37,983 bases of DNA from a bacterium (GTDB taxonomy: Bacteria; UBA8248), in contig CBDBZY010000048.1 in NCBI GenBank assembly GCA_965213685.1, positions 1-37,983 of the forward strand, written 5' to 3'. A model generated the notes under the pieces. That model ran no database searches. It saw nothing but the letters and a program-made list of their open reading frames with translations, and was not told the DNA's origin. Each line of letters starts with the position of its first letter. Positions within the stretch are counted from its first letter, which is position 1. The translations under genes and the position numbers were made by a program. Shown in pieces: positions 1,381 to 35,476 of the stretch.

Positions 1381-1457
1381 CCATCCGTTTAAATCCAGCG
1401 GCTTGTGTGGACCGTCCCTCTCCCCATGCCGCCAAGAAGCCCCGCCCCCGAACGGCG

Positions 1458-2322
1458 TCATGCCCCGTCGGCCCGCTGCCGGTGCTTCTGCGTCAGATAA
1501 GCTGCGAAGGACGCACAGGCCCCCGAACATGAACACGGCCTCGTCCAAACTGACAGGGGCGGCGTCCTTGTCGAGCAGGGCATGGCGGATGCCCTCTTCG
1601 TCGTTGGTGTAGCCGTAGAGCTTTTCGAACGCCTGCCTGAGCGCCGGATGCTTCAGCAAACCAGCCTTTTCAAGGGAACGGAGCGCCGGGCCCAAGGTAG
1701 CGCTGGACCTGGGATCGATTGTTCGCGCCACGGATTCGACCGCAAGAATGCTGTCGACGATCGCATCGGGATACTGGCCCGCTTTGATATGCTCTGCCGC
1801 CTGACGTAAATGTCCTGCCGCTCCGTCCATGTCGCCTTCACGGATTGTTTCGATAGCCTTTTGGGTCGCCGCACCCTGTTCTTTGCTTGCGAATAGAATG
1901 AATTGGTAGGGCCTGCCCGAAGTGTCCAGCCGATAAGCTGCTCCATGCCCTTCAAACAACTTTCCAATTTCCAATGCAGCGTGGTCAATAATAACCTCTT
2001 CTGCAATGATAATTTCGACGAAATCTATAACCTTGTTAAAGTCTGCATTCATAACGAGATATTCTATATCGCGTATAGCCGCACGGTAGGAAGCGTCAAC
2101 TTGGCTTTTGGGCTTCTCGTAGTAGTTCCCCCATGCGGATTGGATTTTTTCTGTTATTGGATAATCTTGCCTAATCAACCTTTGCATAGCATCATAAATG
2201 CTATCGCAAATGGCGCGTCTCAAATCATGCGAAATTTCTCCAGGCCGCATCGGCTCCGGTAGCGGTTCGTACCCGTAGCGTTGCGAGAACGTGCGGCGAG
2301 GAGAGTCCTGGTAATCCGGCAT
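1458..2322 (-). CDS. AbiJ-related abortive-infection protein (AbiJ-NTD4-like N-terminus, HEPN-like C-terminus)
   Basis: N-terminal FSQRYGY motif and C-terminal AVESVAR...LGPAL...HPAL..AFEKLYGYTNDEEGIRHA. Removing one C from the C5 run at 1520-1524 gives the family-like end MFGACASFAAYL...ADGA* with stop at 1458-1460. The N-terminal half is visibly AT-richer than its neighbours. Confidence 0.7.
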
Positions 2323-2329
2323 CGCTGTC

Positions 2330-5722
<3,393 letters not shown>

Positions 5723-13109: not shown

Positions 13110-14084
13110 CCGCCTTCGCGACCCACCGTCTCGACGGGTTGGAGCCAGACAACCTACTCGCCTTCATGGCGTTTGCTCGGACTGCTGCGCACCCTTGAGG
13201 AGGCGCGACCCGATTGGCGTGCCCGCGTCTTTTGGACCGTCGGCGACCCTCCCCTGCGCCCGGCCTTGCGGACCCCGGAAGGCGTGAACGAGGACGCTTT
13301 GACAGAAGCAGCCGCCGAGGGGCTCAACGTCTTGACCCAACGCCACAAGTTCGACGGCCGCAGGAACCTGCAGCTCTCTCCAGAGGACGCGGCCGGAAGC
13401 CTGCGACGAGCCGCCTCGGGCGGGGACCGATACGCCGCCGACCTGTGGGCGGCCCTCGTCAGCGATGCGGCGGTGGCACGCGACGGCAAGAAGGCGGAGC
13501 CGACGCCCCTTTGCCTCATATTCGGCCAGGGGCACCAGCATTTTCTGGGACGCCTCGTTTCGGTTCCGCAAAAGAAAACTCCTCCGGACCGCGGCAAAGG
13601 ACGAAGCAAGAAGATCACGGTCTCCGAGACGGATTGCCTGGGCGAGGCCCTGTTCGCGCCCTGGAGGCGTCCCGATGCGACGGAGTCGTTTCGCTGGGAC
13701 CCCAACGAAGACGTCCGCTACGCGTTGCGCGCCTGGAATCCGACCGACGTCAAGACAAAGGAAACAACGCAACATGGCGCCAACAGGCTGGCCGCGGTCG
13801 GTCTTTCGGTTCTGACCGTTGTGCCAACAGAGCCGCGCGATGGTCAGGTGAGATTGGCCATGCTTGGCGGCCTTCGAGAGAGCGACGGGGGCTTCGTCTT
13901 TCGATGGCCCATCTGGCGGGAGCCGATCAGCCTCGCCTGCATTCGAGCGCTCATGGGGCATCCGGGTCTTGGAAACCGCGAGACGCTCGCCGCCCTCGGC
14001 ATCGTCGAGGTTCGCCAGGCCCGGCGAATTTCGTTCGGCAAATTCATGAACGTCACGAGGGCGGGCGCGGAAACCGCTCCGTGA
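13106..14084 (+). CDS. Short (~325 aa) type I-G large-subunit candidate (Cas8u2/Csb3-like)
   Basis: ATGA overlap with cas3. LDGLEPDNLLAFMA(L)LGLLRTL, FGQGHQHFL, EALFAPW, FRWDP, ANRLAAVGL and FRWPIW. Frameshift at about 13172-13174. Occupies the cas8 slot between cas3 and cas4-1. Confidence 0.7.
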
Positions 14085-15817: not shown

Positions 15818-15826
15818 GAGATGGGC

Positions 15827-16120
15827 ATGCACGACGAACGCACTTACATCGTCACCTACGACATTTCCGACAGCAAACGCTGGCGGCGAGTTTTCAAGAC
15901 CATGCACGGCTTCGGGGAATGGCTCCAACTGTCGGTGTTCCAGTGCCGCCTGTCGCGCCGCCGCCGCGCCGAACTGGAAACGAAGCTGCGCGAACTCATC
16001 AAGTCTGGGGAGGACCACGTGCTGGTGATCGACATCGGCCCGGCGGACAAGACCGATGTCGCCGTCATGAGCATCGGCAAGACGTTTTCGGCGATCGAAC
16101 GCGAGGCTGTCGTCATATGA
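15827..16120 (+). CDS. cas2: Cas2
   Basis: YIVTYDISDSKRWRRVFK and GEWLQLSVFQC. AGGAG at 15816-15820 favours ATG 15827 (alternative 15821). Confidence 0.96.
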   Translation: MHDERTYIVTYDISDSKRWRRVFKTMHGFGEWLQLSVFQCRLSRRRRAELETKLRELIKSGEDHVLVIDIGPADKTDVAVMSIGKTFSAIEREAVVI

Positions 16121-16384: not shown

Positions 16385-19300
16385 GCATCCGGGGCATATA
16401 CGCCCCGGCCTCATTGAAGGACGAGGTCGCTTGATCTCGCTCGCAGCCTTCACGAGCATCCGGGGCATATACGCCCCGGCCTCATTGAAGGTTAGGAACG
16501 GGCTCATAATACATCTGGAACTGATTGGGCATCCGGGGCATATACGCCCCGGCCTCATTGAAGGACCGACCCGTTCCAGCCATTCCCGCGCCTCTTGGAT
16601 CGCATCCGGGGCATATACGCCCCGGCCTCATTGAAGGCCGCGCCGCCGCCGCCGCGTCCAGGGCGGCGCCCATCCCGGGGCATCCGGGGCATATACGCCC
16701 CGGCCTCATTGAAGGAGTTTCCGCTCACTCGCATCCCAGTGCAAGATCATGGGCATCCGGGGCATATACGCCCCGGCCTCATTGAAGGGCCGTCGGCGCC
16801 ATCAAAAATTTCATCACACAGGCAGGGCATCCGGGGCATATACGCCCCGGCCTCATTGAAGGGAACGCTATTGCGAAGTGGAGGATCTGGACGAAGCGGC
16901 ATCCGGGGCATATACGCCCCGGCCTCATTGAAGGGCCCCCGGAGGTGGATACATCCCCTAAAGAAGAAGCAGTGGCATCCGGGGCATATACGCCCCGGCC
17001 TCATTGAAGGTCGTGGGCGCCGCCGAACTCCCGGATGCTCGCGTGCATCGCATCCGGGGCATATACGCCCCGGCCTCATTGAAGGATGAACAATCTGGCG
17101 AAGTGGTCCAGAGAGGGAGTAGCATCCGGGGCATATACGCCCCGGCCTCATTGAAGGCCGAGGCCGGGAGTGCGTATCGAGAATCTCAGTACGGGGCATC
17201 CGGGGCATATACGCCCCGGCCTCATTGAAGGGCGTTCGAGGGTCGCCATCGCCTCAATATCGCTGGGGTGCATCCGGGGCATATACGCCCCGGCCTCATT
17301 GAAGGAGTGGTGCGCTATTCAGTGGACGCCTGGTTGCCGCCGCGCATCCGGGGCATATACGCCCCGGCCTCATTGAAGGTCGACCTCGCTGGGTGTATCC
17401 GGGAACTGGGAATGCGCATCCGGGGCATATACGCCCCGGCCTCATTGAAGGGTTTCCCCGCGACCTGTCATCGTTGCTGCGTCGGACGCATCCGGGGCAT
17501 ATACGCCCCGGCCTCATTGAAGGATATGTTCTCGCGCAGGTATCCGCGATACACGTACCCCGCATCCGGGGCATATACGCCCCGGCCTCATTGAAGGGTC
17601 TCTCGGCAAGGCTGTCCTCGGTCAGGTTAATCAGTGCATCCGGGGCATATACGCCCCGGCCTCATTGAAGGGAGCGGGAAGCGGACGAAGCGTACTATCG
17701 TATGATCGGCGCATCCGGGGCATATACGCCCCGGCCTCATTGAAGGATGGATGCTTAGGAAAGATCCCAAGCCGTCTCAAGCGCGGCATCCGGGGCATAT
17801 ACGCCCCGGCCTCATTGAAGGTGCTATCCGCCTTGCTTGCCGTTTGCTGATAGGCATTGCATCCGGGGCATATACGCCCCGGCCTCATTGAAGGTGCGAT
17901 CAGTATGGCCGGCAAGTGGCGCGGATCGGAAACGCATCCGGGGCATATACGCCCCGGCCTCATTGAAGGGGACGAGCCGGGGGAGATACACCTATGGAGG
18001 CTCCGTGCATCCGGGGCATATACGCCCCGGCCTCATTGAAGCGAACGCGCTCGTCCGGAATCCGAAACTCTGTAATTGGCATCCGGGGCATATACGCCCC
18101 GGCCTCATTGAAGCGATTTCATGACGGCGTCCAGCATCCGCGAGAGGCCTGGCATCCGGGGCATATACGCCCCGGCCTCATTGAAGCTCCCCGTTGCGGG
18201 AGAAGCGGATGACGCCCTGGTCCTCGTAGGCATCCGGGGCATATACGCCCCGGCCTCATTGAAGCCCCCACGGCGACCCCTCCGTCTTCCTTGACTTCCA
18301 CGCATCCGGGGCATATACGCCCCGGCCTCATTGAAGCCAAATCCAACACCACGCAATCAAAACGCGCGGCGGAGCATCCGGGGCATATACGCCCCGGCCT
18401 CATTGAAGCATAGGCTCGGGTTCCTCGGGTGGGGAATCACTCCCTGGCATCCGGGGCATATACGCCCCGGCCTCATTGAAGCACGTCCACCGTGGAGGGT
18501 TCTGGCGTCGCCTCGCGCGTGCATCCGGGGCATATACGCCCCGGCCTCATTGAAGCGACGAGTTCGGAGACGCCCCAGTCGCGGAAGTAGTGCATCCGGG
18601 GCATATACGCCCCGGCCTCATTGAAGCATCCGCTGGCGCGAGTGGAAGGACGCCGAGGAAATCGGCATCCGGGGCATATACGCCCCGGCCTCATTGAAGC
18701 CGAATCGTTTCGGTCAGTGGACACTCGACGGCGGAGAGCATCCGGGGCATATACGCCCCGGCCTCATTGAAGCCGTCGAGACCTCGCTGCGAGCGTCCGT
18801 TCAAAGATGAGCATCCGGGGCATATACGCCCCGGCCTCATTGAAGCCCGCTGTCGAGTTTTACCGCTGCGTTTCGGTCGACGGCATCCGGGGCATATACG
18901 CCCCGGCCTCATTGAAGCGTGACCAGTACGTCCATCTGCCATGGAGGCGACTCGCGCATCCGGGGCATATACGCCCCGGCCTCATTGAAGCGTCTACGAC
19001 CTGCACGTCACCTGTGATCAACACGAGGCATCCGGGGCATATACGCCCCGGCCTCATTGAAGCGCGTCAGCACGGCGTCCATGATCCTCCACTGGGATGG
19101 CATCCGGGGCATATACGCCCCGGCCTCATTGAAGCGGGAGGCGGCGGGCGTTCCCGAACGACCGCTGCCACAGCATCCGGGGCATATACGCCCCGGCCTC
19201 ATTGAAGCGTGATGTCGATATACCCACTCGGGCGAGATGAAACGGGGCATCCGGGGCATATACGCCCCGGCCTCATTGAAGCAGTTGCATCATCCATTCC

Positions 19301-22300
19301 GGGTTGCAGGGTTTGCCGGCGCATCCGGGGCATATACGCCCCGGCCTCATTGAAGCCCTCCAGTTTCGTTTCGATCCTCGCCAGTCTCTGCGCATCCGGG
19401 GCATATACGCCCCGGCCTCATTGAAGCGGCGTGGTCCAGCACCGGCAGCAACAAGGACGCGAGGCATCCGGGGCATATACGCCCCGGCCTCATTGAAGCC
19501 GTGGAGATCGGCCCCATTCACGCCCCCGCCGGGGACCATCCGGGGCATATACGCCCCGGCCTCATTGAAGCCGTTTGAGGTTGTCCAACGAGGCAAACAG
19601 CGCTCCAAAGCATCCGGGGCATATACGCCCCGGCCTCATTGAAGCGAGAAAAGGTTCGGGCGTCCGGAGATCGTGCGCGAGGGCATCCGGGGCATATACG
19701 CCCCGGCCTCATTGAAGGTCGGTGTCGGTCTCGTTCGTAAGCCCGCGTACCCCCAGCATCCGGGGCATATACGCCCCGGCCTCATTGAAGCCGTTTGAGG
19801 TTGTCCAACGAGGCAAACAGCGCTCCAAAGCATCCGGGGCATATACGCCCCGGCCTCATTGAAGCGTGCCCGAAGTTGACGGGGTCAGCGGAGTAGTTTC
19901 GGCGGGCATCCGGGGCATATACGCCCCGGCCTCATTGAAGCTCGCGATCTGGGGGCGTTCCTGGCTGGTCTCTCGGGGCATCCGGGGCATATACGCCCCG
20001 GCCTCATTGAAGCCTGTGTGGCGAATTTGGCCTGGACTGCCTCACCGTCGCATCCGGGGCATATACGCCCCGGCCTCATTGAAGCCGGCGGCCGGCCTGG
20101 GACATCATCCGGGAGGGGCCTCGCGGCATCCGGGGCATATACGCCCCGGCCTCATTGAAGCCGTCGGGCCGGCATCGTGGTCGGTTGGACATCCTGAGCA
20201 TCCGGGGCATATACGCCCCGGCCTCATTGAAGCTTCTGTCGGCGCCACGATTTCCAGGCGCCGTCGGGGGTGCATCCGGGGCATATACGCCCCGGCCTCA
20301 TTGAAGCATTCCTTACTAGCCCATTCACGCCGGGGCCTTCGGGCGCATCCGGGGCATATACGCCCCGGCCTCATTGAAGCTTTTGAAAAAAAAGTGTTGT
20401 TTCACTGATTTTTTTCTCGCATCCGGGGCATATACGCCCCGGCCTCATTGAAGCGAGACGGCGCTGGCCGGCATCTGGCCGGGCGCCGTAGGCATCCGGG
20501 GCATATACGCCCCGGCCTCATTGAAGCTTCATCCGCTCGGACAAGCTCGACCTCTTCCTCGACCGGGCATCCGGGGCATATACGCCCCGGCCTCATTGAA
20601 GCATGACCATTCCGGCGGCGTCCGAAGCAAGGACGCGGAGCATCCGGGGCATATACGCCCCGGCCTCATTGAAGCTATCTCTCAGCATTGATTTTCCTCC
20701 CAGACGGGGCGGGGCATCCGGGGCATATACGCCCCGGCCTCATTGAAGCGGGATCAAGGGAGACTGGATCAATGAGTAAGCTGAAGCATCCGGGGCATAT
20801 ACGCCCCGGCCTCATTGAAGCTTTCGGATGGTCGACGCGAGATCGCGCCGGAGCGCCTCGCATCCGGGGCATATACGCCCCGGCCTCATTGAAGCCCCGG
20901 GCAGGCCCAGGAAGGCACAGCCCGAGAAGCGGGCGGCATCCGGGGCATATACGCCCCGGCCTCATTGAAGCATCCTGCCCGAGCCCACCGTCATCAATTA
21001 TGAGAGCTGCATCCGGGGCATATACGCCCCGGCCTCATTGAAGCTTTCGGATGGTCGACGCGAGATCGCGCCGGAGCGCCTCGCATCCGGGGCATATACG
21101 CCCCGGCCTCATTGAAGCATCCTGCCTTGTCGGGGCAGGACGCCTCAATGCTCGTGGGCATCCGGGGCATATACGCCCCGGCCTCATTGAAGCGTGCAGT
21201 ACCGCTGCATGAATTCGACCATCTCGTCAGGCATCCGGGGCATATACGCCCCGGCCTCATTGAAGCATGTCGCGTCCCCCTTTCGGTTTCCGGGGCGGGT
21301 CATGCATCCGGGGCATATACGCCCCGGCCTCATTGAAGCCAGCGGTGGAGCCGCTCGCAATCGCAGTGGGTGCGCGGCATCCGGGGCATATACGCCCCGG
21401 CCTCATTGAAGCGGTTTTCTTTTCCTGCCTTGCTTTCCCTGCTGATCTGGCATCCGGGGCATATACGCCCCGGCCTCATTGAAGCCCCGACGGACTTCAT
21501 CCCGTTTCGCTCGATCTCCCCGAGAGCATCCGGGGCATATACGCCCCGGCCTCATTGAAGCTGCCATTCTGGATGCGATATTTTCAGCTTTATCGAGAGG
21601 CATCCGGGGCATATACGCCCCGGCCTCATTGAAGCGTCCGTCGCAAGGAAAGGAGAACTAGGAAAAGGGGGCTGCATCCGGGGCATATACGCCCCGGCCT
21701 CATTGAAGCGCGTCGAAAAATGGGCGCCCGATTGATGGCACCAGGAGCATCCGGGGCATATACGCCCCGGCCTCATTGAAGCGCCTCGGCTGCTGACACT
21801 CATCGAGTCTCTTCTCGAAATGCATCCGGGGCATATACGCCCCGGCCTCATTGAAGCATCTCCCGATTTCCCAAGCTGCGAAACTGACCCAGACGCATCC
21901 GGGGCATATACGCCCCGGCCTCATTGAAGCGGGATTTTGGGGTCGGGTCATCCAACCCCTATAATTTGCATCCGGGGCATATACGCCCCGGCCTCATTGA
22001 AGCCGAGTATGGACGCGTTCCCCACTCGGACTTCTCGAGGCGCATCCGGGGCATATACGCCCCGGCCTCATTGAAGCGTGGACTTTATTACCTTCTCATC
22101 CTCTTCGTGAGACCGCATCCGGGGCATATACGCCCCGGCCTCATTGAAGGCCGCATCCGATCAGTCTCCGAGTTTGGGCGGCCAGTGTATCCGGGGCATA
22201 TACGCCCCGGCCTCATTGAAGGTCACCTCATATGAGATGATGGGCGGACCGGCGCGGTGGGTATCCGGGGCATATACGCCCCGGCCTCATTGAAGGCCAC

Positions 22301-25300
22301 CGATCACCTCATAGTGGATGGAGGCAGGGATGTATCCGGGGCATATACGCCCCGGCCTCATTGAAGGTGAGACGGCATCCATGATCTCCTCAGGAGATTT
22401 GAAGTATCCGGGGCATATACGCCCCGGCCTCATTGAAGGTGAGACGGCATCCATGATCTCCTCAGGAGATTTGAAGTATCCGGGGCATATACGCCCCGGC
22501 CTCATTGAAGGTGAGACGGCATCCATGATCTCCTCAGGAGATTTGAAGTATCCGGGGCATATACGCCCCGGCCTCATTGAAGGCGCTCGCAAAAGAGTCC
22601 GATAGTAGTCATCACCCACCCGTATCCGGGGCATATACGCCCCGGCCTCATTGAAGGGGCCTGAAAAGGGAGAACGATGGGATCGGATGCTCACGTATCC
22701 GGGGCATATACGCCCCGGCCTCATTGAAGGGGCGGCCTCTTCGATCGACTGCTCGGGGGCGCCGGCGGTGTATCCGGGGCATATACGCCCCGGCCTCATT
22801 GAAGGTTTTTAGGCTTTTTGGGGATGGGGTGGATGTGGTATGTATCCGGGGCATATACGCCCCGGCCTCATTGAAGGAGTTTGTCTTTCGCTCTGTAGTA
22901 TCCCGTCGAGCGCGGTATCCGGGGCATATACGCCCCGGCCTCATTGAAGGGACCTCCGCGACGCATCCGGTGCCTCCTACATCCCAGTATCCGGGGCATA
23001 TACGCCCCGGCCTCATTGAAGGCAATTCCAATTTTCGGGGCGATCGACTGCCTCTTCTGCGTATCCGGGGCATATACGCCCCGGCCTCATTGAAGGGTCA
23101 CGGACTTTGTTTTCACGCCGATGGCCACACAATCGGTATCCGGGGCATATACGCCCCGGCCTCATTGAAGGGTGGACAGCCGCCCGCTCCAGCCCCTGGA
23201 CGCCGCCGTATCCGGGGCATATACGCCCCGGCCTCATTGAAGGTGGCGGGCGATGCCAGAGGAAGTCGATGGCATCGTCGTATCCGGGGCATATACGCCC
23301 CGGCCTCATTGAAGGACGAGTGGAGACGCCAGCAGCAGCGCCGAAACGGACGGTATCCGGGGCATATACGCCCCGGCCTCATTGAAGGATCCCCACGAGC
23401 GCATCCACGTCCACGATGATGCGACGTATCCGGGGCATATACGCCCCGGCCTCATTGAAGGGCGAGCCAGTCGGATGCGTCATTGAGCTCTTTGCTGTGT
23501 ATCCGGGGCATATACGCCCCGGCCTCATTGAAGGATCCCCACGAGCGCATCCACGTCCACGATGATGCGACGTATCCGGGGCATATACGCCCCGGCCTCA
23601 TTGAAGATCTTCTTTCTTGGTATAAACGAACGGGCCTACCCCACGGGTATCCGGGGCATATACGCCCCGGCCTCATTGAAGAGACTCCGATGAGACCCGC
23701 ACGGCGCTCCGTGCGGGCGGGTATCCGGGGCATATACGCCCCGGCCTCATTGAAGGAGGTGAGCGATCGCGTCGAAACGGACGGCAAGACCTAGTATCCG
23801 GGGCATATACGCCCCGGCCTCATTGAAGATCCGAGACTCGGGAAATTTCGCCATCAATGGGTTGGCGGTATCCGGGGCATATACGCCCCGGCCTCATTGA
23901 AGATCGTTGCTGATCGTAGTATGCGACGGGGGTGTTGCGACGGGTATCCGGGGCATATACGCCCCGGCCTCATTGAAGAGATGGAGACGGCCAAGGGGAT
24001 GGTGGTGACCGGATGGGGTATCCGGGGCATATACGCCCCGGCCTCATTGAAGAGCGCGCGTAGCCTCCCTCCCTCCGCCCATAGCTGTAGGGTATCCGGG
24101 GCATATACGCCCCGGCCTCATTGAAGATTTCCCGGTCGGCGAAACCTGTCCACGACCACCAACTGGGTATCCGGGGCATATACGCCCCGGCCTCATTGAA
24201 GAGTTCCGGAGGATGAGACGGAGGTCGTGGATGAGAGGAGGGTATCCGGGGCATATACGCCCCGGCCTCATTGAAGCCGGACGATTCTCGGTGGCCAGTC
24301 CGTCCATATCAGCGTCGGGTATCCGGGGCATATACGCCCCGGCCTCATTGAAGGGCGATCAATTTACTGCTCGGAGAATCGATCGACAAGCAGTATCCGG
24401 GGCATATACGCCCCGGCCTCATTGAAGGTCGTATGATAAACGCGTCCTCAGCGAAGGTGGAATCGGTATCCGGGGCATATACGCCCCGGCCTCATTGAAG
24501 GGGGTCGTCTTGCCCGACGATGGAGTTGTGCGCGAGTTGTATCCGGGGCATATACGCCCCGGCCTCATTGAAGGACGGAGGCGACAAGCAATCGCCTGAG
24601 GTATCAGGATGGTATCCGGGGCATATACGCCCCGGCCTCATTGAAGGCCCGGAGAGTGTCTCACTCCCTTTCTTTTGAGTTTCTCGTATCCGGGGCATAT
24701 ACGCCCCGGCCTCATTGAAGGGGTCAAGTCGCCCCCACGAGCCGTTCCGAAGGAGCGGGTATCCGGGGCATATACGCCCCGGCCTCATTGAAGGATCCCG
24801 GCCGGCTCCCGAGCGTCGACCGATACCGAGGCGGTATCCGGGGCATATACGCCCCGGCCTCATTGAAGGAGGCATTACGGCAAAGTGAAAAAGATTCTTA
24901 TTTCTTTCGTATCCGGGGCATATACGCCCCGGCCTCATTGAAGGAGGCATTACGGCAAAGTGAAAAAGATTCTTATTTCTTTCGTATCCGGGGCATATAC
25001 GCCCCGGCCTCATTGAAGGGGTGCGAGATCGGATCGAACGCGCCATCGTGAATGGGATGTATCCGGGGCATATACGCCCCGGCCTCATTGAAGGCGGTGG
25101 ATGGGTCGACACGGACGAGCTCCGTGTCGGAAGTATCCGGGGCATATACGCCCCGGCCTCATTGAAGGAGGAAGTCTGCGATCTGGGCAAACAGCCCAGT
25201 CGTGGGTATCCGGGGCATATACGCCCCGGCCTCATTGAAGGCTATTGCCCTGAACAGACGCGCTGTGTGGCGCGTGTGGGGTATCCGGGGCATATACGCC

Positions 25301-28300
25301 CCGGCCTCATTGAAGGAGTCGCGGCAGCGCCGGCGCCTGCAGCACCAGCAGCCGTATCCGGGGCATATACGCCCCGGCCTCATTGAAGGTGTATTGTTGG
25401 ATGTCGGCTTCCATCACGGGAGGGAGAGGTATCCGGGGCATATACGCCCCGGCCTCATTGAAGGCTTGCTGACCTTCCGAAATCCCCCATATATTCGCGA
25501 AGTATCCGGGGCATATACGCCCCGGCCTCATTGAAGGATGGGGGAGCCCGCCTAACGTCCTGAAAGACGGACTGTATCCGGGGCATATACGCCCCGGCCT
25601 CATTGAAGGTGATCGCTTTCCGGCTGAAAGTGACACACAACGCGGTTGTATCCGGGGCATATACGCCCCGGCCTCATTGAAGGGGATAGCCCGTCTCCAG
25701 GAAATCCTGATCCGATTCGGAGTATCCGGGGCATATACGCCCCGGCCTCATTGAAGGACCTCCGACCAAGGAATTGCCCACGCCCAGAGCCGACGTATCC
25801 GGGGCATATACGCCCCGGCCTCATTGAAGGCCTGACGCAGCGGGTCCATTCATCATCAGGTGGGGGCGTATCCGGGGCATATACGCCCCGGCCTCATTGA
25901 AGGGTATCGGGGTCCGAAAGGAGAACCCCCTGAAAGTCCCAGTATCCGGGGCATATACGCCCCGGCCTCATTGAAGGCTAGGCGCATGCACAACCACCAA
26001 ACCCACAACCTCACGGTATCCGGGGCATATACGCCCCGGCCTCATTGAAGGCCGTGTCAAGATGCCACGAACGTCCGTCAGGTATTCGTATCCGGGGCAT
26101 ATACGCCCCGGCCTCATTGAAGGCCGTCCGCCTCCGCGCGCACGGCCGCGTACATAGTATGTATCCGGGGCATATACGCCCCGGCCTCATTGAAGGACGG
26201 GGACCCGGGTTGCGCGCCTAGGAAAAGTCCGGGTATCCGGGGCATATACGCCCCGGCCTCATTGAAGGAGTTTTAGGGGTGGAGGACAGGCCGCCACCAA
26301 AAGAAGTATCCGGGGCATATACGCCCCGGCCTCATTGAAGGTAGAGGAAGGGCGTCTTGCTGCTACTAATCTCCGACCTGTATCCGGGGCATATACGCCC
26401 CGGCCTCATTGAAGGAATGGTCGACGTCTCACCACCACTCCCGAGCCGACAGCCGTATCCGGGGCATATACGCCCCGGCCTCATTGAAGGACGGGCTGCT
26501 GACGCAACAAACCGATCCGGCCGATCCGGTATCCGGGGCATATACGCCCCGGCCTCATTGAAGGGCAGCATCGGATTCCGAAACTGACCCGACCGACCCG
26601 AGTATCCGGGGCATATACGCCCCGGCCTCATTGAAGGTGAGGGGATTCGAAAAGAAGCGGTCAATGAACATCCCGGTATCCGGGGCATATACGCCCCGGC
26701 CTCATTGAAGGGCATCCCATTTCCCTAAGTCTTTCAGCTAGGTGCCTCGTATCCGGGGCATATACGCCCCGGCCTCATTGAAGGGCATCCCATTTCCCTA
26801 AGTCTTTCAGCTAGGTGCCTCGTATCCGGGGCATATACGCCCCGGCCTCATTGAAGGGCACCGCAGTAGCTGGTGTTCTCGACAAGGTGACGAAGTATCC
26901 GGGGCATATACGCCCCGGCCTCATTGAAGGGCGTCTCATCTGCGACTGGGTGGGTCTGGGGAGGCCCGTATCCGGGGCATATACGCCCCGGCCTCATTGA
27001 AGGATCAGCGATCGGAAAAACCAAAATTCGGGCGTCCGCCGTATCCGGGGCATATACGCCCCGGCCTCATTGAAGGATCAGCGATCGGAAAAACCAAAAT
27101 TCGGGCGTCCGCCGTATCCGGGGCATATACGCCCCGGCCTCATTGAAGGTAGAGGAAGGGCGTCTTGCTGCTACTAATCTCCGACCTGTATCCGGGGCAT
27201 ATACGCCCCGGCCTCATTGAAGGAGTTCCGGAGCAGGAACGTGAAAAGATACCAACGGAGTATCCGGGGCATATACGCCCCGGCCTCATTGAAGGCTCGA
27301 TCTTGGCTCCTTGAAGGCGCCCGCTTGATGGTATCCGGGGCATATACGCCCCGGCCTCATTGAAGCCTGTCGAGGGGTCAATCCTGACCAGCTCGGTATC
27401 CGAAGCATCCGGGGCATAAACGCCCCGGCCTCATTGAAGCCGAGCCGTAGACACTCCGAATATCCCCTCCGCAATCGGCATCCGGGGCATAAACGCCCCG
27501 GCCTCATTGAAGCCTCGAGGGAGAAGGGGAGTGGAAACCGCTCGAGGAGCATCCGGGGCATAAACGCCCCGGCCTCATTGAAGCTTCTATGCGGATGCTG
27601 ACCAGTCCGGCGTCTCCGCCGCAATCCGGGGCATATACGCCCCGGCCTCATTGAAGCGCAGCACCTCACTCAGCTCGACTATCACGCTATCTAGCAATCC
27701 GGGGCATATACGCCCCGGCCTCATTGAAGCGTCGTGTTGCCCCCACTCCCCCCGCACTTTGTGGAGCGGCAATCCGGGGCATATACGCCCCGGCCTCATT
27801 GAAGCGTCGTGTTGCCCCCACTCCCCCCGCACTTTGTGGAGCGGCAATCCGGGGCATATACGCCCCGGCCTCATTGAAGCGCGCGGGGTGCGGTCTCTCA
27901 CCATTCCGGCGGGAGAGGGGCAATCCGGGGCATATACGCCCCGGCCTCATTGAAGGCAGGTATCGCATCGTGTCGCGATGGGGCGGGTCCTCGGCACAGC
28001 ATCCGGGGCATATACGCCCCGGCCTCATTGAAGGGTCATTTATGATCCGGTGCCATTCCCACTCCTTGGGGGCATCCGGGGCATATACGCCCCGGCCTCA
28101 TTGAAGGTCGAGCGATATGCGCGTCAATTCGCGATACTTGCGGCATCCGGGGCATATACGCCCCGGCCTCATTGAAGCGGCGCGGTCTCGGAGACGTTCA
28201 TGGTCGCGCGCCGGGCATCCGGGGCATATACGCCCCGGCCTTATTGAAGCCTCCGCCTGGTACCTGTAGAGTTTGCGGCGGCCGTACAGCATCCGGGGAC

Positions 28301-28400: not shown

Positions 28401-28556
28401 GGGCAGGAGCATGGTCGTGAAGACGTGCGCTCTCCACGATCCCGGCCGGATGGCGCGGCTCAAGAAACAGCGGAGGTCGTTCTTGCGCAACGGTCCATCT
28501 CGCCTACTTGCCGGAAACACCCGCGTGCCGGATGCCTTCCTCGCGGCGGCAGCGGC

Positions 28557-30689
28557 ATGAGCGGCACGACCGAAGCCTTCGCGCGCGTCCAGATCAACGC
28601 CCTGCTCCAGGACGCCGGCTGGAACCTGACCGACGGCGTGAGCGTCCTGTACGAGCATGCGCTGCCGGACGGCACGTTGGCCGACTATGTGCTCTGCGAC
28701 CGGCAGGGCCGGCCGATGGCGGTACTGGAGGCCAAGCGCGAAAGCACCGATCCGATCGCGGCACAAGAGCAGGGACGGCACTACGCCGAACAGCTCGGCG
28801 TGCCGTTCGTCTTCTTATCGAACGGCGAGGAAGTGCGGTTCCTCGACCGCGAGACGGACGCCCACTCCCGCGAGATCGCGGGCTTCTATGCCCAGGACGA
28901 CCTGGAGCGGCGGATCGCCGCGCGGCGGATTCGCCGCGACCTCGCCGACCTCGCCATCGACCGCAGGATCGTCGACCGCGGCTATCAGATCGAGTGCATC
29001 GAGGCGCTGTCCGCCGAAGTCTCGCGCGGTCGGCGCAAACTGCTGGTCGAGATGGCGACGGGGACCGGCAAGACGCGCACGGCGGCGGCCTTCGTCAAGC
29101 GGCTGTTCGAGGCGGGGGTCGTCACCCGCATCCTGTTCCTGGTTGACCGCATAGCGCTGGCGCGCCAGGCCGAGGACGCGTTCACCGACCATCTGCGGGA
29201 CTATCCCTGCCACGTGTTGCGGCCCGGCCGCGTCTTCGACCGCGCGAAACGCATCACGATAGCGACCCTGCAGACCATGATCGCGGAATACCGCGCACTC
29301 TCGCCAGGATACTTCGACCTCGTCATCACCGACGAATGCCACCGCTCGATCTACGGGGAGTGGAGCGGCGTGCTGCGGCGCTTCGACGGCATCCAGCTCG
29401 GCCTGACGGCCACTCCGTGCGCGGCGGACGCCGACGCGCTCCCCGATCCCGAGGACGGGCGGTTCGTTCGGGACACGCTGCGTTTCTTCGAGCTTGCCGA
29501 ACCCACCTATCGCTACACGCTCCGCCAGGCCATCGGGGAGGGCCATCTCGTGCCCTACCGCATCTACCGGGCGATGACGGTGAAGACCGCCGCCGGGGAC
29601 GGGTTCGAGGTGCGGCGGGAGGAGCTCGACTGGACGGCGATGGACGCGGCCACCCGGGAGGAGTTCGAGGCGCTGTTCGCAACCTCGGATACGATCAAGG
29701 TGGACCCCCGGGCGCTGGAACGAAAATTCACCATCCCCGAGCGCAACCGCGCCCTGGTGCGGGAGTTCCGCGACGCGCAGGAGAAGGGTTTCACGGGCAG
29801 GGACGGGGTTCGGCGCCGGCCCGCCCGGGGCAAGACCATCGTGTTCGCGGTGACCCGGCGCCACGCCGAGACGCTGGCGGAGATGTTCGACCTGCATTTC
29901 GCGGACATGAAGCCACGCCCCGCCGTGCGCTACGCCGATTTCGTGGTGAGCGATGCGGGCGGCGGCCCCGCACCTGATGCGAGCGCCATCATCCAGCGTT
30001 TCAAGGATGAGGAATATCCGCAGATACTCGTCAGCGTGAACATGCTCGACACCGGCTTCGATTGCCCGGAGGTGGTCAACCTCGTCATGGCGCGGTTCAC
30101 GCGCAGCGCCATCCTCTACCGGCAGATGCGCGGGCGGGGCACGCGCAAGGCGCCGCACATCGGCAAGACCGGGTTCACGATATTCGATTTCGTGGGAGTG
30201 ACGGACTTCCACGGCGACGACGACGCGGAGGGCGAGGGCGGCCCGATCCGCGAGGGGGGCCGCCCGCCCGGCCCCGGCGATCCCCGCATGCTGCTGACCC
30301 TCGACGTGGACGACCACATCGACCCGGCGAGCCGCGACTGGCTGACGCTCGACGAGACGGGCCGCATCGTGCGCACGCCGGAGCACGAAGCGCGCGCCGC
30401 CGAGGTCGGCCTGCGCGTCGAGGCGTGGCGCGGGGAGCACGAAGAGTTCGGCGCGGAGCAGGCAAGATGGGCGGGCCTGATCGGCAGTCGGGTGAGGGCT
30501 GACGCGATGAATCTGGAGGCGTTCGGCAGATGGGATTTTGACGAACATCCCTTCGATGCGCTCGGCGGCTACGACCAGGCGCGGCGCGTGTTCGGCGGGG
30601 AGGAGTCGCTCGGCCGGCTGATTGCCGGGTTCAATGCGGCGGTGTTCGGGGGGAGGCCGGCGGCAGGCGGCCGCGCGGGGGAGCGGTGA
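28557..30689 (+). CDS. hsdR: Type I restriction enzyme R subunit
   Basis: ADYVL...VLEAK nuclease motif, RGYQ, MATGTGKT, LFLVDR, DECHRS, GLTATP, KTIVFA, SVNMLDTGFD and QMRGRGTR. Start ATG 28557 (MSGTTEAFAR). Confidence 0.92.
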   Translation: MSGTTEAFARVQINALLQDAGWNLTDGVSVLYEHALPDGTLADYVLCDRQGRPMAVLEAKRESTDPIAAQEQGRHYAEQLGVPFVFLSNGEEVRFLDRETDAHSREIAGFYAQDDLERRIAARRIRRDLADLAIDRRIVDRGYQIECIEALSAEVSRGRRKLLVEMATGTGKTRTAAAFVKRLFEAGVVTRILFLVDRIALARQAEDAFTDHLRDYPCHVLRPGRVFDRAKRITIATLQTMIAEYRALSPGYFDLVITDECHRSIYGEWSGVLRRFDGIQLGLTATPCAADADALPDPEDGRFVRDTLRFFELAEPTYRYTLRQAIGEGHLVPYRIYRAMTVKTAAGDGFEVRREELDWTAMDAATREEFEALFATSDTIKVDPRALERKFTIPERNRALVREFRDAQEKGFTGRDGVRRRPARGKTIVFAVTRRHAETLAEMFDLHFADMKPRPAVRYADFVVSDAGGGPAPDASAIIQRFKDEEYPQILVSVNMLDTGFDCPEVVNLVMARFTRSAILYRQMRGRGTRKAPHIGKTGFTIFDFVGVTDFHGDDDAEGEGGPIREGGRPPGPGDPRMLLTLDVDDHIDPASRDWLTLDETGRIVRTPEHEARAAEVGLRVEAWRGEHEEFGAEQARWAGLIGSRVRADAMNLEAFGRWDFDEHPFDALGGYDQARRVFGGEESLGRLIAGFNAAVFGGRPAAGGRAGER

Positions 30690-30693: not shown

Positions 30694-32327
30694 ATGCCCA
30701 TGACGCCCGAGCTGCGGGGCGGCGTCGACCGGGTGCGCGACTACCTGTTCGGCGGCGGCTATCCGAACCCGGTCCAGAACGCCGAACAGCTCAGCTTCCT
30801 GATCTACTTCTACATGTATGAGGCGGCGGACGCGGCGCGGGTGCGCGCGGCGCAGCGGCCGGGCGCCGCACCGTACGTCAGCGCGTTCGATGGCGAATGG
30901 CTCTTGCGCGACCCGCGAAACGCCCGCGAGCCCGGCGCGGCGACGGCACGGCGCGAACGCCTGCGCTGGTCCTCCTGGGCGCATGCGCTCAACGGCGAGC
31001 GGCTGGTCAACTGGGTGCGCGAGGAAGTGTTTCCGTTCCACGCAGAGCTTGCGGCGAGGGGCGCCACCGACTTCATGGACGGCGCCCGGCTGGTCATCGA
31101 CGAGCCGACCGTGCTCACCCAGGTCGTCAGCCAGTTGAACGACCTGCGTCTCGACCGGGTGGACGCCGACACCAAGGGCGACCTGTTCGAGCACGTGCTG
31201 CGCCAGATCCGGCAGTCGGGCGAGCTCGGCCAGTTCCGCACGCCCCGCCACGTCATCCGCGCGCTTGTCCGGCTCGTCGACCCCCGCCTGGGCGAGACCG
31301 TCTGCGACCCGGCGGCGGGGACGGGCGGCTTCCTGGTCGGGGCGTGGGACCACGTCCGGCTCGCCAACTCCTCGCCCGACGGGATCGAGGAGGTCGAAGC
31401 GGAGGGCAAGACAGTCCGGCGCGGCCTCGCCGACAAGTTGAAGCCCGACGAGATGAAGCGGTTGCGGGAGGAGACGTTCTACGGCGCCGACGTGGACCCG
31501 CAGATGGTCCGGCTCGCCACCATGAACTTGACCCTGCGCGGCCTCGACCGGGTGCGCATCCTGCGCCGAGACGCGCTCACCCGTCCTCTCGACCGGGCGG
31601 CGAAGGAGGAACTCGGCCTGCCGGCGCGCGGCTTCGACGTCATCCTCGCCAATCCCCCCTTCTCCGGCCGGCTGGACAGGGACCGCATCGTCGAGGAGGT
31701 GAGGGTCGGGCGGACGGCACAGACCGAGCTCCTGTTCCTGCAATACATGCTCAACCACCTGAAAGACGGCGGACGCTGCGGCGTCGTGGTGCCCGAGGGC
31801 GTGCTGTTCGGCTCCACCGGCGCGCACCGGGAGTTGCGCCGCCGGCTGGTCGAGAACAACACCGTCGAGGCGGTGCTGTCGCTGCCCGCCGGCGTCTTCA
31901 ACCCCTATTCCGGCGTCAAGACCTCGGCGCTCGTTTTTCGCAAGGGTGGCGCGACGGAGCGCGTCATGTTCCTCCACGCCGAGAACGACGGCTTCAAACT
32001 CGACGCCAACCACGACCAGCCGATCCAGGAAGACGACCTGCCCGGGCTGATCGCGGCGTTCCGCGATCGGGGGGGGGGGGGCGATGGGCCGCATGGCGGG
32101 ACCGGGACACGGACGCCGAGTGGACCGAAAACTGGTGGTTCGCCTGCGCCGACGCCATCCGCGCCGCCGATTTCAACCTGAGCGCAGGACGCCATCGCCC
32201 GCAGAACCGGGCGAAGGTGGAGCACCGCGACCCTCTCGAAATCCTCGGCGAGCTGCGAGCGATTGAGACGGAAATCCTGGGCGAGATCGACAAACTGGCC
32301 GAGGCGGTGCGGGAGGCGGGGGAATGA
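30694..32327 (+). CDS. hsdM: Type I RM methyltransferase subunit, out of frame at a G13 tract
   Basis: GDLFEHVL, GQFRTPRH, DPAAGTGGFL (motif I), ANPPF (motif IV) and VVPEGVLF. The C-terminus FNLSAGRHRP...DPLEILGELRAIETEI...AGE* lies in another frame after 32069-32081 and stops at 32327. Confidence 0.92.
32069..32081 (+). repeat. G13 homopolymer in hsdM
   Basis: Read directly. G11 or G14 would restore the frame. Confidence 0.85.
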
Positions 32328-32400
32328 GCAGGCATTTTTTGTTCCGATTTGGCTGGTCGATGATCGACTGTCCACAGCCCAATCGTCTCTGGTGCGCGTG

Positions 32401-33771
32401 ATGGCGGCGGGCAATGATCAAACGCAACGCATCCGCGACCCGGTCCACGGGCTCATCGTATTTGGCAGAAGTGGCGACAAGCACCGAGACGAGACGGACC
32501 GGATCGCATGGCGTTTGCTCAACACGCCCGAGTTCCAGCGGTTGCGTCGCATTCGCCAGTTGGGCTTCTCCGATCTGGTCTTTCCGGGTGCGACGCACAG
32601 CCGTTTCGCCCACAGCATCGGCGTCTACCACACCGCGCGCCGGCTCGCCGAAGTGATCGCGCGCCAGCAGGGGGAGAGGCACTCCGATCGCGAACGCGTT
32701 GCGCTTCTCGCCGCCCTCTTGCACGATGTCGGACACGGGCCGTTCAGCCATGCATTTGAGGTTGCGGCCCAAGCGGCGGGTTCGCCTAAAAAACGTCACG
32801 AGGGCTGGGGTGCCGAGATTATCCGAGGCGACACAGGGGTCAACCGCGTCTTACGGGAAGTGGACGATACGTTGCCGGAGGTGATCTGCGGGTTGCTGAA
32901 GGAGGAGGAACCCAAGGACATCTACGCCACTATCGTCTCAAGCCAGTTCGACGCTGACCGGCTCGACTACATCCAGCGGGACAGGATGGCGACCGGCGTC
33001 GAGTTTGGGCACGTCGATCAGGATTGGCTGTTCGATTGCATGGAAGTTGGAAAGGTCACCATTGGCAGAGAAGATCCGCACGAGGCGCCGTGCCTCTATC
33101 TTGGTTGGAAGGGCTTGTCCGTGGCCGAGGAATATCTGGAAGCGCGGTTCCGGCTTTACCAGATGGTTTATATGCACAAGACGACCCGGTCTGCCGAGAA
33201 GATGCTGGAGGCGTTGCTGGAGGATGTTGCGGAAGAAGCGAAGACCGAAGATTTGCATCCTGAGCAAAAGGAACCGGTATCGCGCTATCTAGCGTTGAAA
33301 ACCCCATCTCTTGGCGCCTATATCGATCTTGACGACGCGGTCGCTTGGGCCGCTATATTGGAATTTGCCAAACGACCGAATCAGCGGACAAAGACATTGG
33401 CGCGGCGCCTGCGGGACCGTGAACTCTATAAGTGCGTCGACATCGGCGTCCTCGATGACCCCGGCGGCAACCTGTATCGCCGTGTCCGACGCGAACTAAA
33501 TGAGCGCCCGATTGAGGAGCAAGGTTGCCTTTTGTTCGATGACGCAACGGTTGTTAAAGCTTACGAGTGGTACGATTTTGACGATGCTTCGGCGCTCAAC
33601 AAGGTTCTCTTGAAGACGCCATCGGACTCGGACGGACATGAGCCGAAGGACATTGCCACCATATCGCCTATCGTCAAAACTCTTCAGGAAAAGCGTATCC
33701 AGCGCGTTTATGCGCCTGATTCGGGTATAGCTCAGAGACTTCGAGAAATCATCGAGGAGGTCAGAAGATGA
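32401..33771 (+). CDS. HD-domain phosphohydrolase, SAMHD1/YwfO-like (putative dNTP triphosphohydrolase)
   Basis: IRDPVHG, TPEFQRLRRIRQLG, FPGATHSRFAHSIG, LLHDVGHGPFSHAFE, FDADRLDY and VYMHKT. Likely start ATG 32401. Confidence 0.9.
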   Translation: MAAGNDQTQRIRDPVHGLIVFGRSGDKHRDETDRIAWRLLNTPEFQRLRRIRQLGFSDLVFPGATHSRFAHSIGVYHTARRLAEVIARQQGERHSDRERVALLAALLHDVGHGPFSHAFEVAAQAAGSPKKRHEGWGAEIIRGDTGVNRVLREVDDTLPEVICGLLKEEEPKDIYATIVSSQFDADRLDYIQRDRMATGVEFGHVDQDWLFDCMEVGKVTIGREDPHEAPCLYLGWKGLSVAEEYLEARFRLYQMVYMHKTTRSAEKMLEALLEDVAEEAKTEDLHPEQKEPVSRYLALKTPSLGAYIDLDDAVAWAAILEFAKRPNQRTKTLARRLRDRELYKCVDIGVLDDPGGNLYRRVRRELNERPIEEQGCLLFDDATVVKAYEWYDFDDASALNKVLLKTPSDSDGHEPKDIATISPIVKTLQEKRIQRVYAPDSGIAQRLREIIEEVRR

Positions 33772-34319
33772 ACTCCGCGGATATTGTTGTTAATCTGATC
33801 AAACTGAATGGCGGAGAACTAGTTGGGCGTACCAGGCTGCAAAAATGCGCCTACCTTCTGCATCGCTGCGGGGCGAATTTCGATCTGGCCTTTGTCTATC
33901 ATCACTATGGCCCGTATTCCTTTGATCTCGCCGCCGGATGCACCGATGCCCTATCGGAAGATTATATCAAGAGCGAAGAAAAAGTCGGCCGGCACGGCGT
34001 GCCCTATGCGATCTTCATATCCAAGGAAGAAAGATCCAAGGAAGATGCCGATCCACCGCAGCCTCTCGGTGCGTTGTCCGCGGCAAAGGCTGACTCCCTG
34101 ATCCAGAAGATGCAAAAAGTCACGGACATCGTGCTCGAACTCGCCGCGACCATCGTTTTTCTGCGCGACGAATGGGACTACTACGGGAAAGGCAAGGTCG
34201 ACCCGGTCGAGGAGACGAAGGCCCGCAAGCCGCTGAAAGCGACGCCCGAACGCATCGAGAAGGCGCGTGCTCTGATCCGCGCTCTCGGTCTGGAAGGTGA
34301 GGTAGCGTCGGCGAGATGA
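33768..34319 (+). CDS. YwgA-like protein (similar to DUF4065/Panacea and DarG C-terminal antitoxin-type domains)
   Basis: GRTRLQKCAYLL, F.YHHYGPYSFDL and LELAATIVFL. ATGA overlaps with both the HD gene and hsdS. Confidence 0.75.
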   Translation: MNSADIVVNLIKLNGGELVGRTRLQKCAYLLHRCGANFDLAFVYHHYGPYSFDLAAGCTDALSEDYIKSEEKVGRHGVPYAIFISKEERSKEDADPPQPLGALSAAKADSLIQKMQKVTDIVLELAATIVFLRDEWDYYGKGKVDPVEETKARKPLKATPERIEKARALIRALGLEGEVASAR

Positions 34320-35476
34320 ACACACATGCCCGAGTTCCTCTCGGGGAAGTCTGTACCATCGTCGGCGGCGGTACTCCTCGGCGTAGCAACCCGACCTACT
34401 TTGGGGGCGCTATCCCTTGGGCGACGCCGACCGATGTGACGGCACTCGATTCCCTCTTTATCGAGCGAACAAAGGAAACGATCACAGAGCTTGGTTTGGG
34501 TGAAAGCAGCGCACGGTTGCTACCTGCTGGAACTGTCTTGATGACGAGCAGAGCCACTATTGGCTACACGGCGATCACAACTCGGCCTATGGCGACTAAC
34601 CAAGGCTTTGCCAACCTGATCTGTAGCGAACATGTCATGCCGGAGTATCTCGCATATTGGCTTCGCCACCAGCGTGAGCGCCTGATCCAGCTCGCCGGGG
34701 GAACTACCTTTAGGGAACTTCCGAAATCTACCCTCAAGAATGTCCTCATCCCCCTCCCGCCACTCGACGAGCAGCGGCGGATCGTCGGCGTCCTGAACCG
34801 GGCGGCGCAGATCGAGCGGTTGCGGGTGGGGGCGCAGGAGCGGTTGCGGGAATTCATCCCCGCGCTGTTCGCCAAGATGTTCGGCGATCCGGTGGAGAAC
34901 CCGATGGGGTGGGAGGTCGCGGCCCTTGGTGATTTGTGCGACGTAAATATTGGAAGAACCCCGCCTCGCAAAGAGTCACGGTATTGGGGAGGAACGCATC
35001 CGTGGGCCACCATCCGTGATCTTGACGGAAGCACTCTGATGTCTACGGCACAGGGCATAACAGATGATGCAGTAAACGAAGTAATGCCAATTCCAGTTGA
35101 ACCGGACACACTGTTGTTCAGTTTCAAGTTAAGTATCGGAAAAATGGCATTCGCAGGTCGAAGTATGTACCACAACGAGGCCATCGCTGCCCTTCCGATT
35201 CGTAATTGCAAGGCACTTGACCGAGAGTTTCTGTTCTACGCACTCAAGGCAAAAACCCACGAGGAAGGGGCGAATGACGCAGTTCTCGGAAAAGTGCTGA
35301 ACAAACGCAAAGTAGAAGAAATCCAAATCCCCCTCCCGCCGCTTGACAGGCAGCGACGATTTGCGGAGGTCGCGGGGAAGGCGCAGGCCGCCGTCGCGCG
35401 CGCGGACGCCGGAACGCGAACCGCCTCGAGTCTCACCGCCTCCCTCCTGTCCCGCCTGTTGGAAGACGGCGCATGA
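34316..35476 (+). CDS. hsdS: Type I RM specificity subunit (two TRDs)
   Basis: LGEVC...GGGTP, TSRATIG, TNQGF, IPLPPLDEQRRIV, FAKMFGDP..NPMGW, second TRD GRTP...FKLSIGK...HNEAI, and IPLPPLDRQRRF. Confidence 0.95.
   Translation: MNTHARVPLGEVCTIVGGGTPRRSNPTYFGGAIPWATPTDVTALDSLFIERTKETITELGLGESSARLLPAGTVLMTSRATIGYTAITTRPMATNQGFANLICSEHVMPEYLAYWLRHQRERLIQLAGGTTFRELPKSTLKNVLIPLPPLDEQRRIVGVLNRAAQIERLRVGAQERLREFIPALFAKMFGDPVENPMGWEVAALGDLCDVNIGRTPPRKESRYWGGTHPWATIRDLDGSTLMSTAQGITDDAVNEVMPIPVEPDTLLFSFKLSIGKMAFAGRSMYHNEAIAALPIRNCKALDREFLFYALKAKTHEEGANDAVLGKVLNKRKVEEIQIPLPPLDRQRRFAEVAGKAQAAVARADAGTRTASSLTASLLSRLLEDGA

Follow-up and report, generated by a model that had tools for sequence, protein, structure and literature searches.

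Depletion of nucleotides is an antiviral strategy shared from bacteria to humans, and the question is how the enzymes that carry it out stay harmless before infection. Here we describe a two-gene cassette from a bacterium of the GTDB lineage UBA8248, consisting of a gene for an HD hydrolase (hereafter HD) and a small gene directly downstream (the partner), which lies at positions 32401 to 34319 of contig CBDBZY010000048.1 (assembly GCA_965213685.1) inside a type I restriction-modification (RM) operon. The whole stretch analyzed, 37,983 nucleotides (nt) of this contig, is called the window throughout. In our preferred reading, which we hold with about even confidence, HD and partner are a self-contained nucleotide-depletion module of toxin-antitoxin (TA) type that rides in RM operons: HD would degrade deoxynucleoside triphosphates (dNTPs), the partner would bind and restrain it, and infection would relieve the restraint.

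Several described systems share some of these features. In the excerpts of PMC12265719 on which we rely (this and the other papers given by PMC number are cited for parts of their text), the Clover dNTP triphosphohydrolase (dNTPase) CloA is toxic alone and its partner CloB suppresses the toxicity. Like Clover, the cassette is a two-gene operon of a putative HD dNTPase and a partner, with what may by analogy be the same logic of nucleotide depletion, restraint, and antiviral action. CloB, however, is a nucleotidyltransferase of the Pol-beta type, while our partner protein has no nucleotidyltransferase domain in Pfam, NCBIfam, or PADLOC scans and is predicted to act by binding a protein rather than through a small-molecule signal. 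Clover thus answers the question of restraint with a small molecule, and the cassette suggests a second answer, a protein binder of the DarG-C/Panacea fold. DUF4065/Panacea proteins are homologous to the DarT-inhibiting domain of the antitoxin DarG, according to the excerpted text of PMC13621843. As in DarTG, the partner appears to have the fold of the DarT-binding domain; unlike DarTG, the locus has no macrodomain and no DarT gene beside the partner, whose neighbors are the HD hydrolase upstream and hsdS downstream. As with PrrC in the type IC locus EcoprrI, a non-RM effector gene is embedded in a type I hsd operon; PrrC differs in being an unrelated anticodon nuclease without a partner gene of its own, and its control by the RM complex is documented (both points from the parts of PMC12707154 cited).

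HD resembles EF1143 and SAMHD1 in its full-length fold and in its motifs, those of the HD metal site and of the H-E dyad among them; unlike them, it is encoded together with a dedicated small predicted binder, on a mobile cassette in an RM operon. Tal et al., in the preprint 10.1101/2021.04.26.441389, reportedly described stand-alone anti-phage dGTPases of the Dgt type, which are dNTP-degrading, single-gene members of the HD superfamily. HD is of a different subfamily, and only its N-terminal ~100 residues match (PADLOC dGTPase model, residues 24 to 124, E 1.4e-8). The first-pass annotation, made from the sequence, knew of no earlier characterization of the arrangement, and we too found no description in the literature of the HD-partner pair or of a dNTPase in RM operons, with the proviso that the supplementary gene lists of PMC8832971, PMC10440598, and PMC13519002, represented here by parts of these papers, could still include it. 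We propose that dNTPase-based defense has here a protein regulator of a new type, and that the DarG-C/Panacea fold gains a toxin partner not known before. If this is true, a dNTPase joins the toxins controlled by that promiscuous fold, the two genes make a compact system that lends itself readily to testing, and the uptake of such modules as cargo by RM operons of several types bears on how defense layers are assembled and exchanged.

Layout of the operon

Open reading frames (ORFs) and domain matches confirm the order hsdR-hsdM-HD-partner-hsdS on one strand, with the following features:

28425..30689, + strand: hsdR, type I restriction subunit (EcoAI/IB-like), longest ORF; an ATG fitting the N-termini of relatives lies near 28557
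30622/30694..32327, + strand: hsdM, type I methyltransferase (N6_Mtase 7.3e-51, MTase_I 8.4e-113), split over two frames in the assembly
32069..32081, + strand: 13-G homopolymer within hsdM, cause of the frameshift (+5 nt versus 9 related hsdM genes)
32328..32400, + strand: spacer of 73 nt between hsdM stop and HD start, left border of the cassette
32401..33771, + strand: HD gene, 456 amino acids (aa), homologue of EF1143/SAMHD1-type dNTP triphosphohydrolases
33768..34319, + strand: partner gene, 183 aa, similar to the DarG C terminus (Panacea-related), predicted HD binder
34316..35476, + strand: hsdS, type I specificity subunit (Methylase_S 3.6e-45 in two stretches, Specificity_I 5.8e-72)

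The hsdR product matches Pfam ResIII (2.5e-33), Helicase_C, and HSDR_N as well as PADLOC REase_I (1.1e-76). The ATGA overlaps reported earlier between HD and partner (33768-33771) and between partner and hsdS (34316-34319) can be read directly in the sequence. The 4-nt overlap of HD and partner was found again in 20 of the 50 loci that we list. As for the earlier suggestion that hsdS is translationally coupled to the cargo, it stands for the window, where the genes overlap. The ATGA overlap of partner and hsdS is peculiar to the window, the spacing in L001, L008, L015, L023, and L040 ranges from an apparent overlap to 269 nt, and coupling is not conserved. The cargo is indeed richer in A+T than hsdR and hsdM, with a G+C content of 0.52 to 0.55 in the 3′ half of HD and in the partner against 0.68 to 0.73 in hsdR/hsdM; hsdS lies at 0.53 to 0.61.

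All three genes that make up a type I RM system (R, M, and S) are found in the window, and hsdM is the one without an intact frame. Its frame 1 ends at 32181, and the conserved C terminus runs on in another frame to 32327. In relatives hsdM is one intact frame of 538 to 583 aa, and none of the nine genes compared has a G run at the position of the 13-G tract. Either the run is a tract prone to slippage and thus to phase variation, or the assembly is in error there. Contigs of the public runs X1 to X4 neither confirm nor refute it, as those of relatives break there; contigs identical to the window are listed solely from 32284 onward, 3′ of the tract. If the frameshift is real, it would leave the RM system switched off, and transcription of the cassette and hsdS may nonetheless continue. 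A promoter and terminator scan gave nothing above chance, the 73-nt spacer before HD included, and the region 5′ of HD has no operator conserved across loci, with a weak TTGAC-like element in some of them.

Domains and folds of the two proteins

HD carries the Pfam domains HD (6.8e-15) and HD_assoc_2 (6e-10). Its closest relative in the PDB is the HD dNTPase of Enterococcus faecalis (2o6i/3irh/4lrl; 2e-42 by sequence), followed by SAMHD1 at ~1e-20. The AlphaFold model of HD (predicted local distance difference test [pLDDT], 92.2) can be aligned end to end with the E. faecalis enzyme, the helical region at the C terminus included (Foldseek, 4lrl_B; E 3.5e-22; template modeling [TM] score, 0.77; 27% identity over 463 columns), and with human SAMHD1 it gives a TM score of ~0.70 at ~21% identity. 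The three motifs pointed out earlier (HSIG, HDVGHGPFSH, and DADRLDY) are all in the translation. In a 40-sequence alignment, residues H66, R68, H71, H108, D109, H112, H117, H133, E134, D184, D186, Y257, and H259 are invariant and K260 is kept in at least 90%; the metal ligands H71, H108-D109, and D186 align to the motifs of the E. faecalis enzyme, and the excerpted text of PMC12265719 states that the H-E dyad is required. The view of HD as a SAMHD1-like enzyme with a complete metal-binding set is thereby borne out: judged by sequence and modeled fold, HD is a full-length EF1143/SAMHD1-type protein with a complete catalytic set, and it probably hydrolyzes dNTPs.

The partner matches no Pfam family at an E value of 0.01 or better, SocA_Panacea (PF13274) included. 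Its matches are instead to DarG: model positions 168 to 323 of 329 in PADLOC (1.7e-12) and 184 to 334 of 338 in NCBIfam (2.2e-9; score of 37 against a cut-off of 250). Only the C-terminal part of these models is covered, and the macrodomain of DarG, an ADP-ribosyl glycohydrolase, is lacking in the 183-aa protein. The structure model of the partner (pLDDT, 90.9) has one strong match, to the DarG chain of the Mycobacterium tuberculosis DarTG complex 7yk3 (Foldseek TM score, 0.60; probability, 1.0). VIA-align superposes 159 of 183 residues on 7yk3_D at Z 11.3, a root mean square deviation of 4.6, and 13% identity; its second-best matches are winged-helix domains, at Z 5 to 5.7 over residues 1 to 112. 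The partner also shares the LQK...Y...YGPYS motif with DarG-C/Panacea proteins. Its link to Panacea/DUF4065 by fold runs through DarG only, and one Atlas cluster (rank 27) carries PF13274 in 13% of its members. The family is moderately large, with 1837 cluster representatives at E ≤0.001 and 446 at ≤1e-10, nearly all of them stand-alone proteins of 160 to 190 aa. The profiles, the 7yk3 match, and one homologue labeled "YwgA" by one source agree with the first-pass description of a YwgA- or DarG-C-like antitoxin, and the partner, as modeled, folds like the part of DarG that binds DarT, its C-terminal domain.

The complex of the two proteins, whose prediction had been suggested at first pass, was modeled with interface scores (ipSAE) of 0.43, 0.68, and 0.75 (median, 0.68), compared with 0.33 for the best control, which favors binding. 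Among 80 solved complexes, 58 attain the ipSAE mark, whereas 2 of 110 mismatched pairs do so; these counts are rough here since our own alignments were used. The runs share at least 76% of contacts, with a partner pLDDT of at least 80. On the partner side the predicted interface is formed by the invariant residues G20, R21, Y47, R153, K154, and K157, and on the HD side by residues 131 to 142, a helix that starts with the H133-E134 dyad, together with the acidic loop 163 to 172. We know of no solved complex of a dNTPase with a DarG-C-like protein, so the model seems unlikely to be a copy of a known structure. The partner is predicted, then, to bind HD.

Pairing and decay across relatives

A scan with the partner profile, limited to one genome per species, gave 134 relatives, of which 79 loci were retained. 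An HD match lies directly 5′ of the partner on the same strand in 76 of these 79, and their integrity is as follows:

HD intact, partner intact: 59 loci
HD broken, partner intact: 13 loci
HD absent, partner intact: 2 loci (L018, L020)
HD cut by a contig edge, partner intact: 4 loci
HD broken, partner broken: 1 locus
HD intact, partner broken: 0 loci

The partner is therefore intact while HD is broken or absent in 15/79 loci and the reverse is seen in 0/79, an asymmetry that fits the dependency of a toxin on its antitoxin. It also touches on two other explanations. The partner could follow the opposite logic and be a sensor or activator, with a winged-helix N-terminal half, that turns HD on. 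Such a role would suit the winged-helix matches of its first 112 residues, the viability of HD relatives that have no partner, and the two loci in which the partner stands alone. Yet the one homologue with a solved structure is an inhibitor domain (7yk3; PMC13621843, as excerpted), a mere activator is not expected to outlast HD in 15 loci, and the predicted interface touches the helix with the catalytic H133-E134; we regard activation as distinctly unlikely. The pair could also be an addiction module only, which stabilizes the RM operon or the island without direct antiviral action. The antitoxin-type fold, the predicted binding, the overlapping genes, and the persistence of the partner where HD decays are all compatible with this. 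It appears improbable, given flanking direct repeats and cassette-free operons (described below) that speak for a cassette readily gained and lost, and a repeated association specifically with RM-type genes that suggests more than stabilization.

Approached from the other gene, a scan of metagenome contigs with the HD profile gave at least 581 relatives, and we kept the best 80. In a tree built from 92 HD proteins, a starred split (99) sets apart the clade of the window, with 53 rows, 52 of them with a partner; among the HD-anchored rows of this clade the partner is present in 12/13, and the exception is a long branch. The remaining 39 rows comprise 10 partnered and 29 unpartnered proteins and imply at least 7 state changes. 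Pairing is near-obligate in the HD clade of the window and facultative farther out. The identities of HD and partner are correlated across 780 pairs (Spearman, 0.74), which shows co-inheritance only. A tblastn search of plasmids with the partner gave no match, and viral contigs yielded only 2 partner loci, both with HD upstream. The more distant pairs from the genus of the window likewise have low G+C content at third codon positions (GC3), and two of them, L082 and L083, show the reverse order, partner and then HD, so pairing is independent of one fixed gene order.

The genome of the window itself has a second, distant HD-like gene (L080, contig C44:223560-224967; 29% identity), after which comes a partner-like gene (E 9.5e-8), and a further partner-like ORF at C44:205839.

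Foreign composition and mobility

The pair has a lower GC3 than its flanks in 53 of 56 loci (median difference, -0.14), a contrast inflated somewhat by an ORF chooser that favors high-GC3 ORFs. None of 22 genomes of the same genus has a close orthologue, the best other match being 1.6e-23. In public runs of one study we found contigs identical to the window across 32284-34675. A contig of run X1, at a higher depth (~260), joins position 32322 to 34326 with 14 other letters between them; it represents a related hsdM-hsdS operon without the cassette. Given this cassette-free operon, the cassette is cargo and not an ancestral operon member. Two loci suggest how it comes and goes. In L001 a copy of the hsdM 3′ end (169 nt, 97% identical) lies between partner and hsdS, and the direct repeats 6412-6580 and 8616-8784 flank the cassette; L006 has a direct repeat of the hsdM 3′ end of 197 nt and 79% identity. 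Homologous recombination between such repeats is a likely route of gain and loss. In 11 loci (L005, L007, L021, L025, L026, L027, L037, L047, L056, L071, and L078) an insertion sequence (IS) or integrase is adjacent or the pair is inserted in another gene. The two genes form a mobile cassette, tightly linked and of foreign composition, at the hsdM/hsdS junction.

Individual loci show further rearrangements: in L037 (4984-9267) the pair interrupts an amidase gene, half of which lies on each side, and in L025 (5333-7995) a DDE transposase splits the HD gene. Run X1 also holds many diverged hsdM contigs with a high summed depth, which shows that related type I systems abound in the community and that their hsdS target-recognition domains differ.

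Association with RM systems and other neighbors

In 10 related loci, hsdR and hsdM genes 72 to 84% identical to those of the window lie directly 5′ of the cassette, whose HD proteins are 63 to 73% identical. Among the hsd-embedded loci, only a remnant of HD is left in L009, and hsdS precedes HD in L012; hsdM remnants occur in L004 and L007, and hsdS lies upstream in L032. We examined the history of the embedding on 40-row HD trees (of the 50 listed loci, L003, L005, L007, L010, L019, L032, L041, L047, L052, L054, and L078 were omitted). All 10 hsd-embedded rows fall within one well-supported clade, the smallest starred set of the careful tree having 15 rows, and the embedding label requires 3 to 4 changes, compared with a shuffled mean of ~9 and 0/500 shuffles as low. 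As the embedded rows form one clade, type I embedding had about one origin with later losses.

Other RM systems have captured the cassette as well. Locus L031 (4964-10157) reads mod (type III, split into two ORFs)-HD-partner-res, with res reduced to the first ~300 of ~900 model positions; here the cassette became embedded independently, in a type III system that is in decay. A DrmMI-like methylase lies directly upstream in L045, L061, and L090, and L061 also adjoins Zorya genes; L077 has hsdS and hsdM on the opposite strand, and L033 a C5 methylase ~1 kb upstream. Neighbor scans took in the two nearest called genes to either side in the 69 loci without window-like hsdR/hsdM (Pfam on 125 proteins and PADLOC on 114; 107 of those 114 were also run against Pfam and 56 of the first 125 against PADLOC). 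By our tally an RM-type gene is adjacent in 18 of the 79 loci, so the recurrence in hsd operons and defense contexts that the first-pass annotation asked of a neighborhood survey is there, the 10 type I cases counting as about one event. A tblastn search with the hsd proteins of the window gave no match in the 80 HD-anchored metagenome loci or the 2 viral loci.

The first-pass annotation had gone further and seen in the RM complex a guard like that of PrrC: the type I complex would keep HD inactive, and a phage anti-restriction protein that blocks RM would free it. PrrC (PMC12707154, as excerpted) is the precedent, and the location of the cassette within an hsd operon, the overlap that couples hsdS to the partner in the window, the persistence of the arrangement in 10 relatives despite an HD identity of 63 to 73%, and capture by other RM types would all agree with such a guard. 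The survey does not bear it out. In 61/79 loci there is no RM-type gene within two called genes, and the hsd-embedded rows go back to about one origin. Three points weaken the reading: the cassette is autonomous; it outlives decayed RM systems, being intact beside the hsdM remnant of L004 and the split mod and truncated res of L031; and its coupling to hsdS is not conserved. The module also carries its own predicted binder. We consider control by the RM complex very unlikely.

Neighbors of another kind raise the possibility of a housekeeping or DNA repair accessory, in which the pair would regulate or clean the dNTP pool, a role proposed for enzymes of the YwfO/EF1143 type, with the partner as regulatory subunit, and the position in RM operons would be hitchhiking. 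The distant clade is found mostly beside housekeeping genes (uvrA in three loci, uvrB in three; also smc, ndk, and thyX); further neighbors are a nucleoside transporter beside thyX, uracil-DNA glycosylase (UDG), and carB. The closest relatives of known structure are dNTPases of cells, the cited parts of PMC4993169 and PMC3814617 discuss YwfO-like proteins as having housekeeping roles, and partner-less relatives are common. The distribution is patchy, however, with a close orthologue in 0/22 same-genus genomes; GC3 is foreign in 53/56 loci, those adjacent to uvrA or uvrB included; IS or integrase genes adjoin the pair, or it is inserted into genes, in the 11 loci named above; HD is decayed in 13 loci; and RM embedding recurs. 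On balance a housekeeping role seems unlikely.

The pair lies beside uvrA in L049, L051, and L071 and beside uvrB in L042, L058, and L070, and its GC3 is 0.14 to 0.34 below that of the flanks in L042, L049, L051, and L058, the four of these loci for which GC3 was calculated. This adjacency may mark a hot spot of insertion or else reflect a link in function. PADLOC calls of mad3/mad8 upstream of HD in L049, L051, and L071 raised the idea of a three-gene defense system, which we rejected, as Pfam identifies these proteins as UvrA; Pfam likewise gives UvrB in L042, L058, and L070, an SMC protein in L055, and an ABC-F protein in L063. The PADLOC mad3/mad8 models score UvrA at 1e-95 to 1e-100 (L049:3410-6574, L051:3426-6398, and L071:2795-5902) and so yield false defense calls.

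Proposed mechanism

In the self-contained module that we prefer, HD and partner would be cotranslated and the partner would bind the enzyme, so that in the uninfected cell it restrains a dNTP-degrading HD. Infection would lift the restraint by some trigger, dNTP pools would drop, and phage DNA replication would stall. The module would act beside the RM enzyme and not under its control, with the RM operon supplying transcription and a complementary first layer of defense.

Several observations weigh against this reading. HD scores 24.5 bits against the curated anti-phage dGTPase model NF041026, whose cut-off is 400, no PADLOC system model covers the HD-partner pair, and YwfO-type relatives are treated as housekeeping in the parts of PMC4993169 cited. 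The decay asymmetry is biased because all 79 loci were found via the partner. With no detectable partner in 29 of the 39 enzymes from more distant HD clades, such enzymes need not be toxic alone. In the distant clade of loci described above, the neighbors are mostly housekeeping genes. The 10 type I embeddings are not independent and amount essentially to one event, most loci (61/79) stand apart from RM-type genes, and among the HD-anchored loci within the clade of the window only 1/16 has an RM-type neighbor.

A more specific version of the mechanism is also conceivable. At least three kinds of RM system (type I, type III, and DrmMI-like) would each have captured a portable second layer in which the DarG-C-like partner, as a nucleic acid mimic, would plug a regulatory surface on a SAMHD1-like dNTPase. 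The plug would be displaced by phage DNA or by an anti-restriction protein that mimics DNA, and failed or blocked restriction would lead to dNTP collapse. We regard this as a long shot; if true, nucleotide-depletion immunity would have a trigger logic of a new kind, and the Panacea/DarG-C fold a new class of toxin.

The defense island around the operon

The window is a defense island, closed by the hsd operon. Upstream of hsdR it contains the following:

1090..2322, - strand: protein with an AbiJ N-terminal domain
2341..3723, - strand: C-terminal specificity fragment of a Type ISP enzyme
7919..16120, + strand: cas genes (GSU0053 family, GSU0054 family, Cas3, Cas4-Cas1 fusion, Cas2)
16679..28177: CRISPR array with a 37-nt repeat, a period of ~73 nt, and ~150 units over ~11.5 kb, ending ~250 nt before hsdR

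The Type ISP enzyme looks fragmented, as the neighboring ORFs (within 1090-7172) have no Pfam match. In a - strand ORF next to its fragment, positions 4281-4325 hold runs of 14 and 30 C split by one G, and such homopolymers raise the possibility of sequencing artifacts in the contig. The genome to which the window belongs measures 7.97 Mb in 71 contigs, compared with 2.9 to 4.6 Mb in the 22 genomes of the same genus, and may be a merged bin even though its estimated contamination is 3.7%. Within the CRISPR array, the repeat variants shift along its length.

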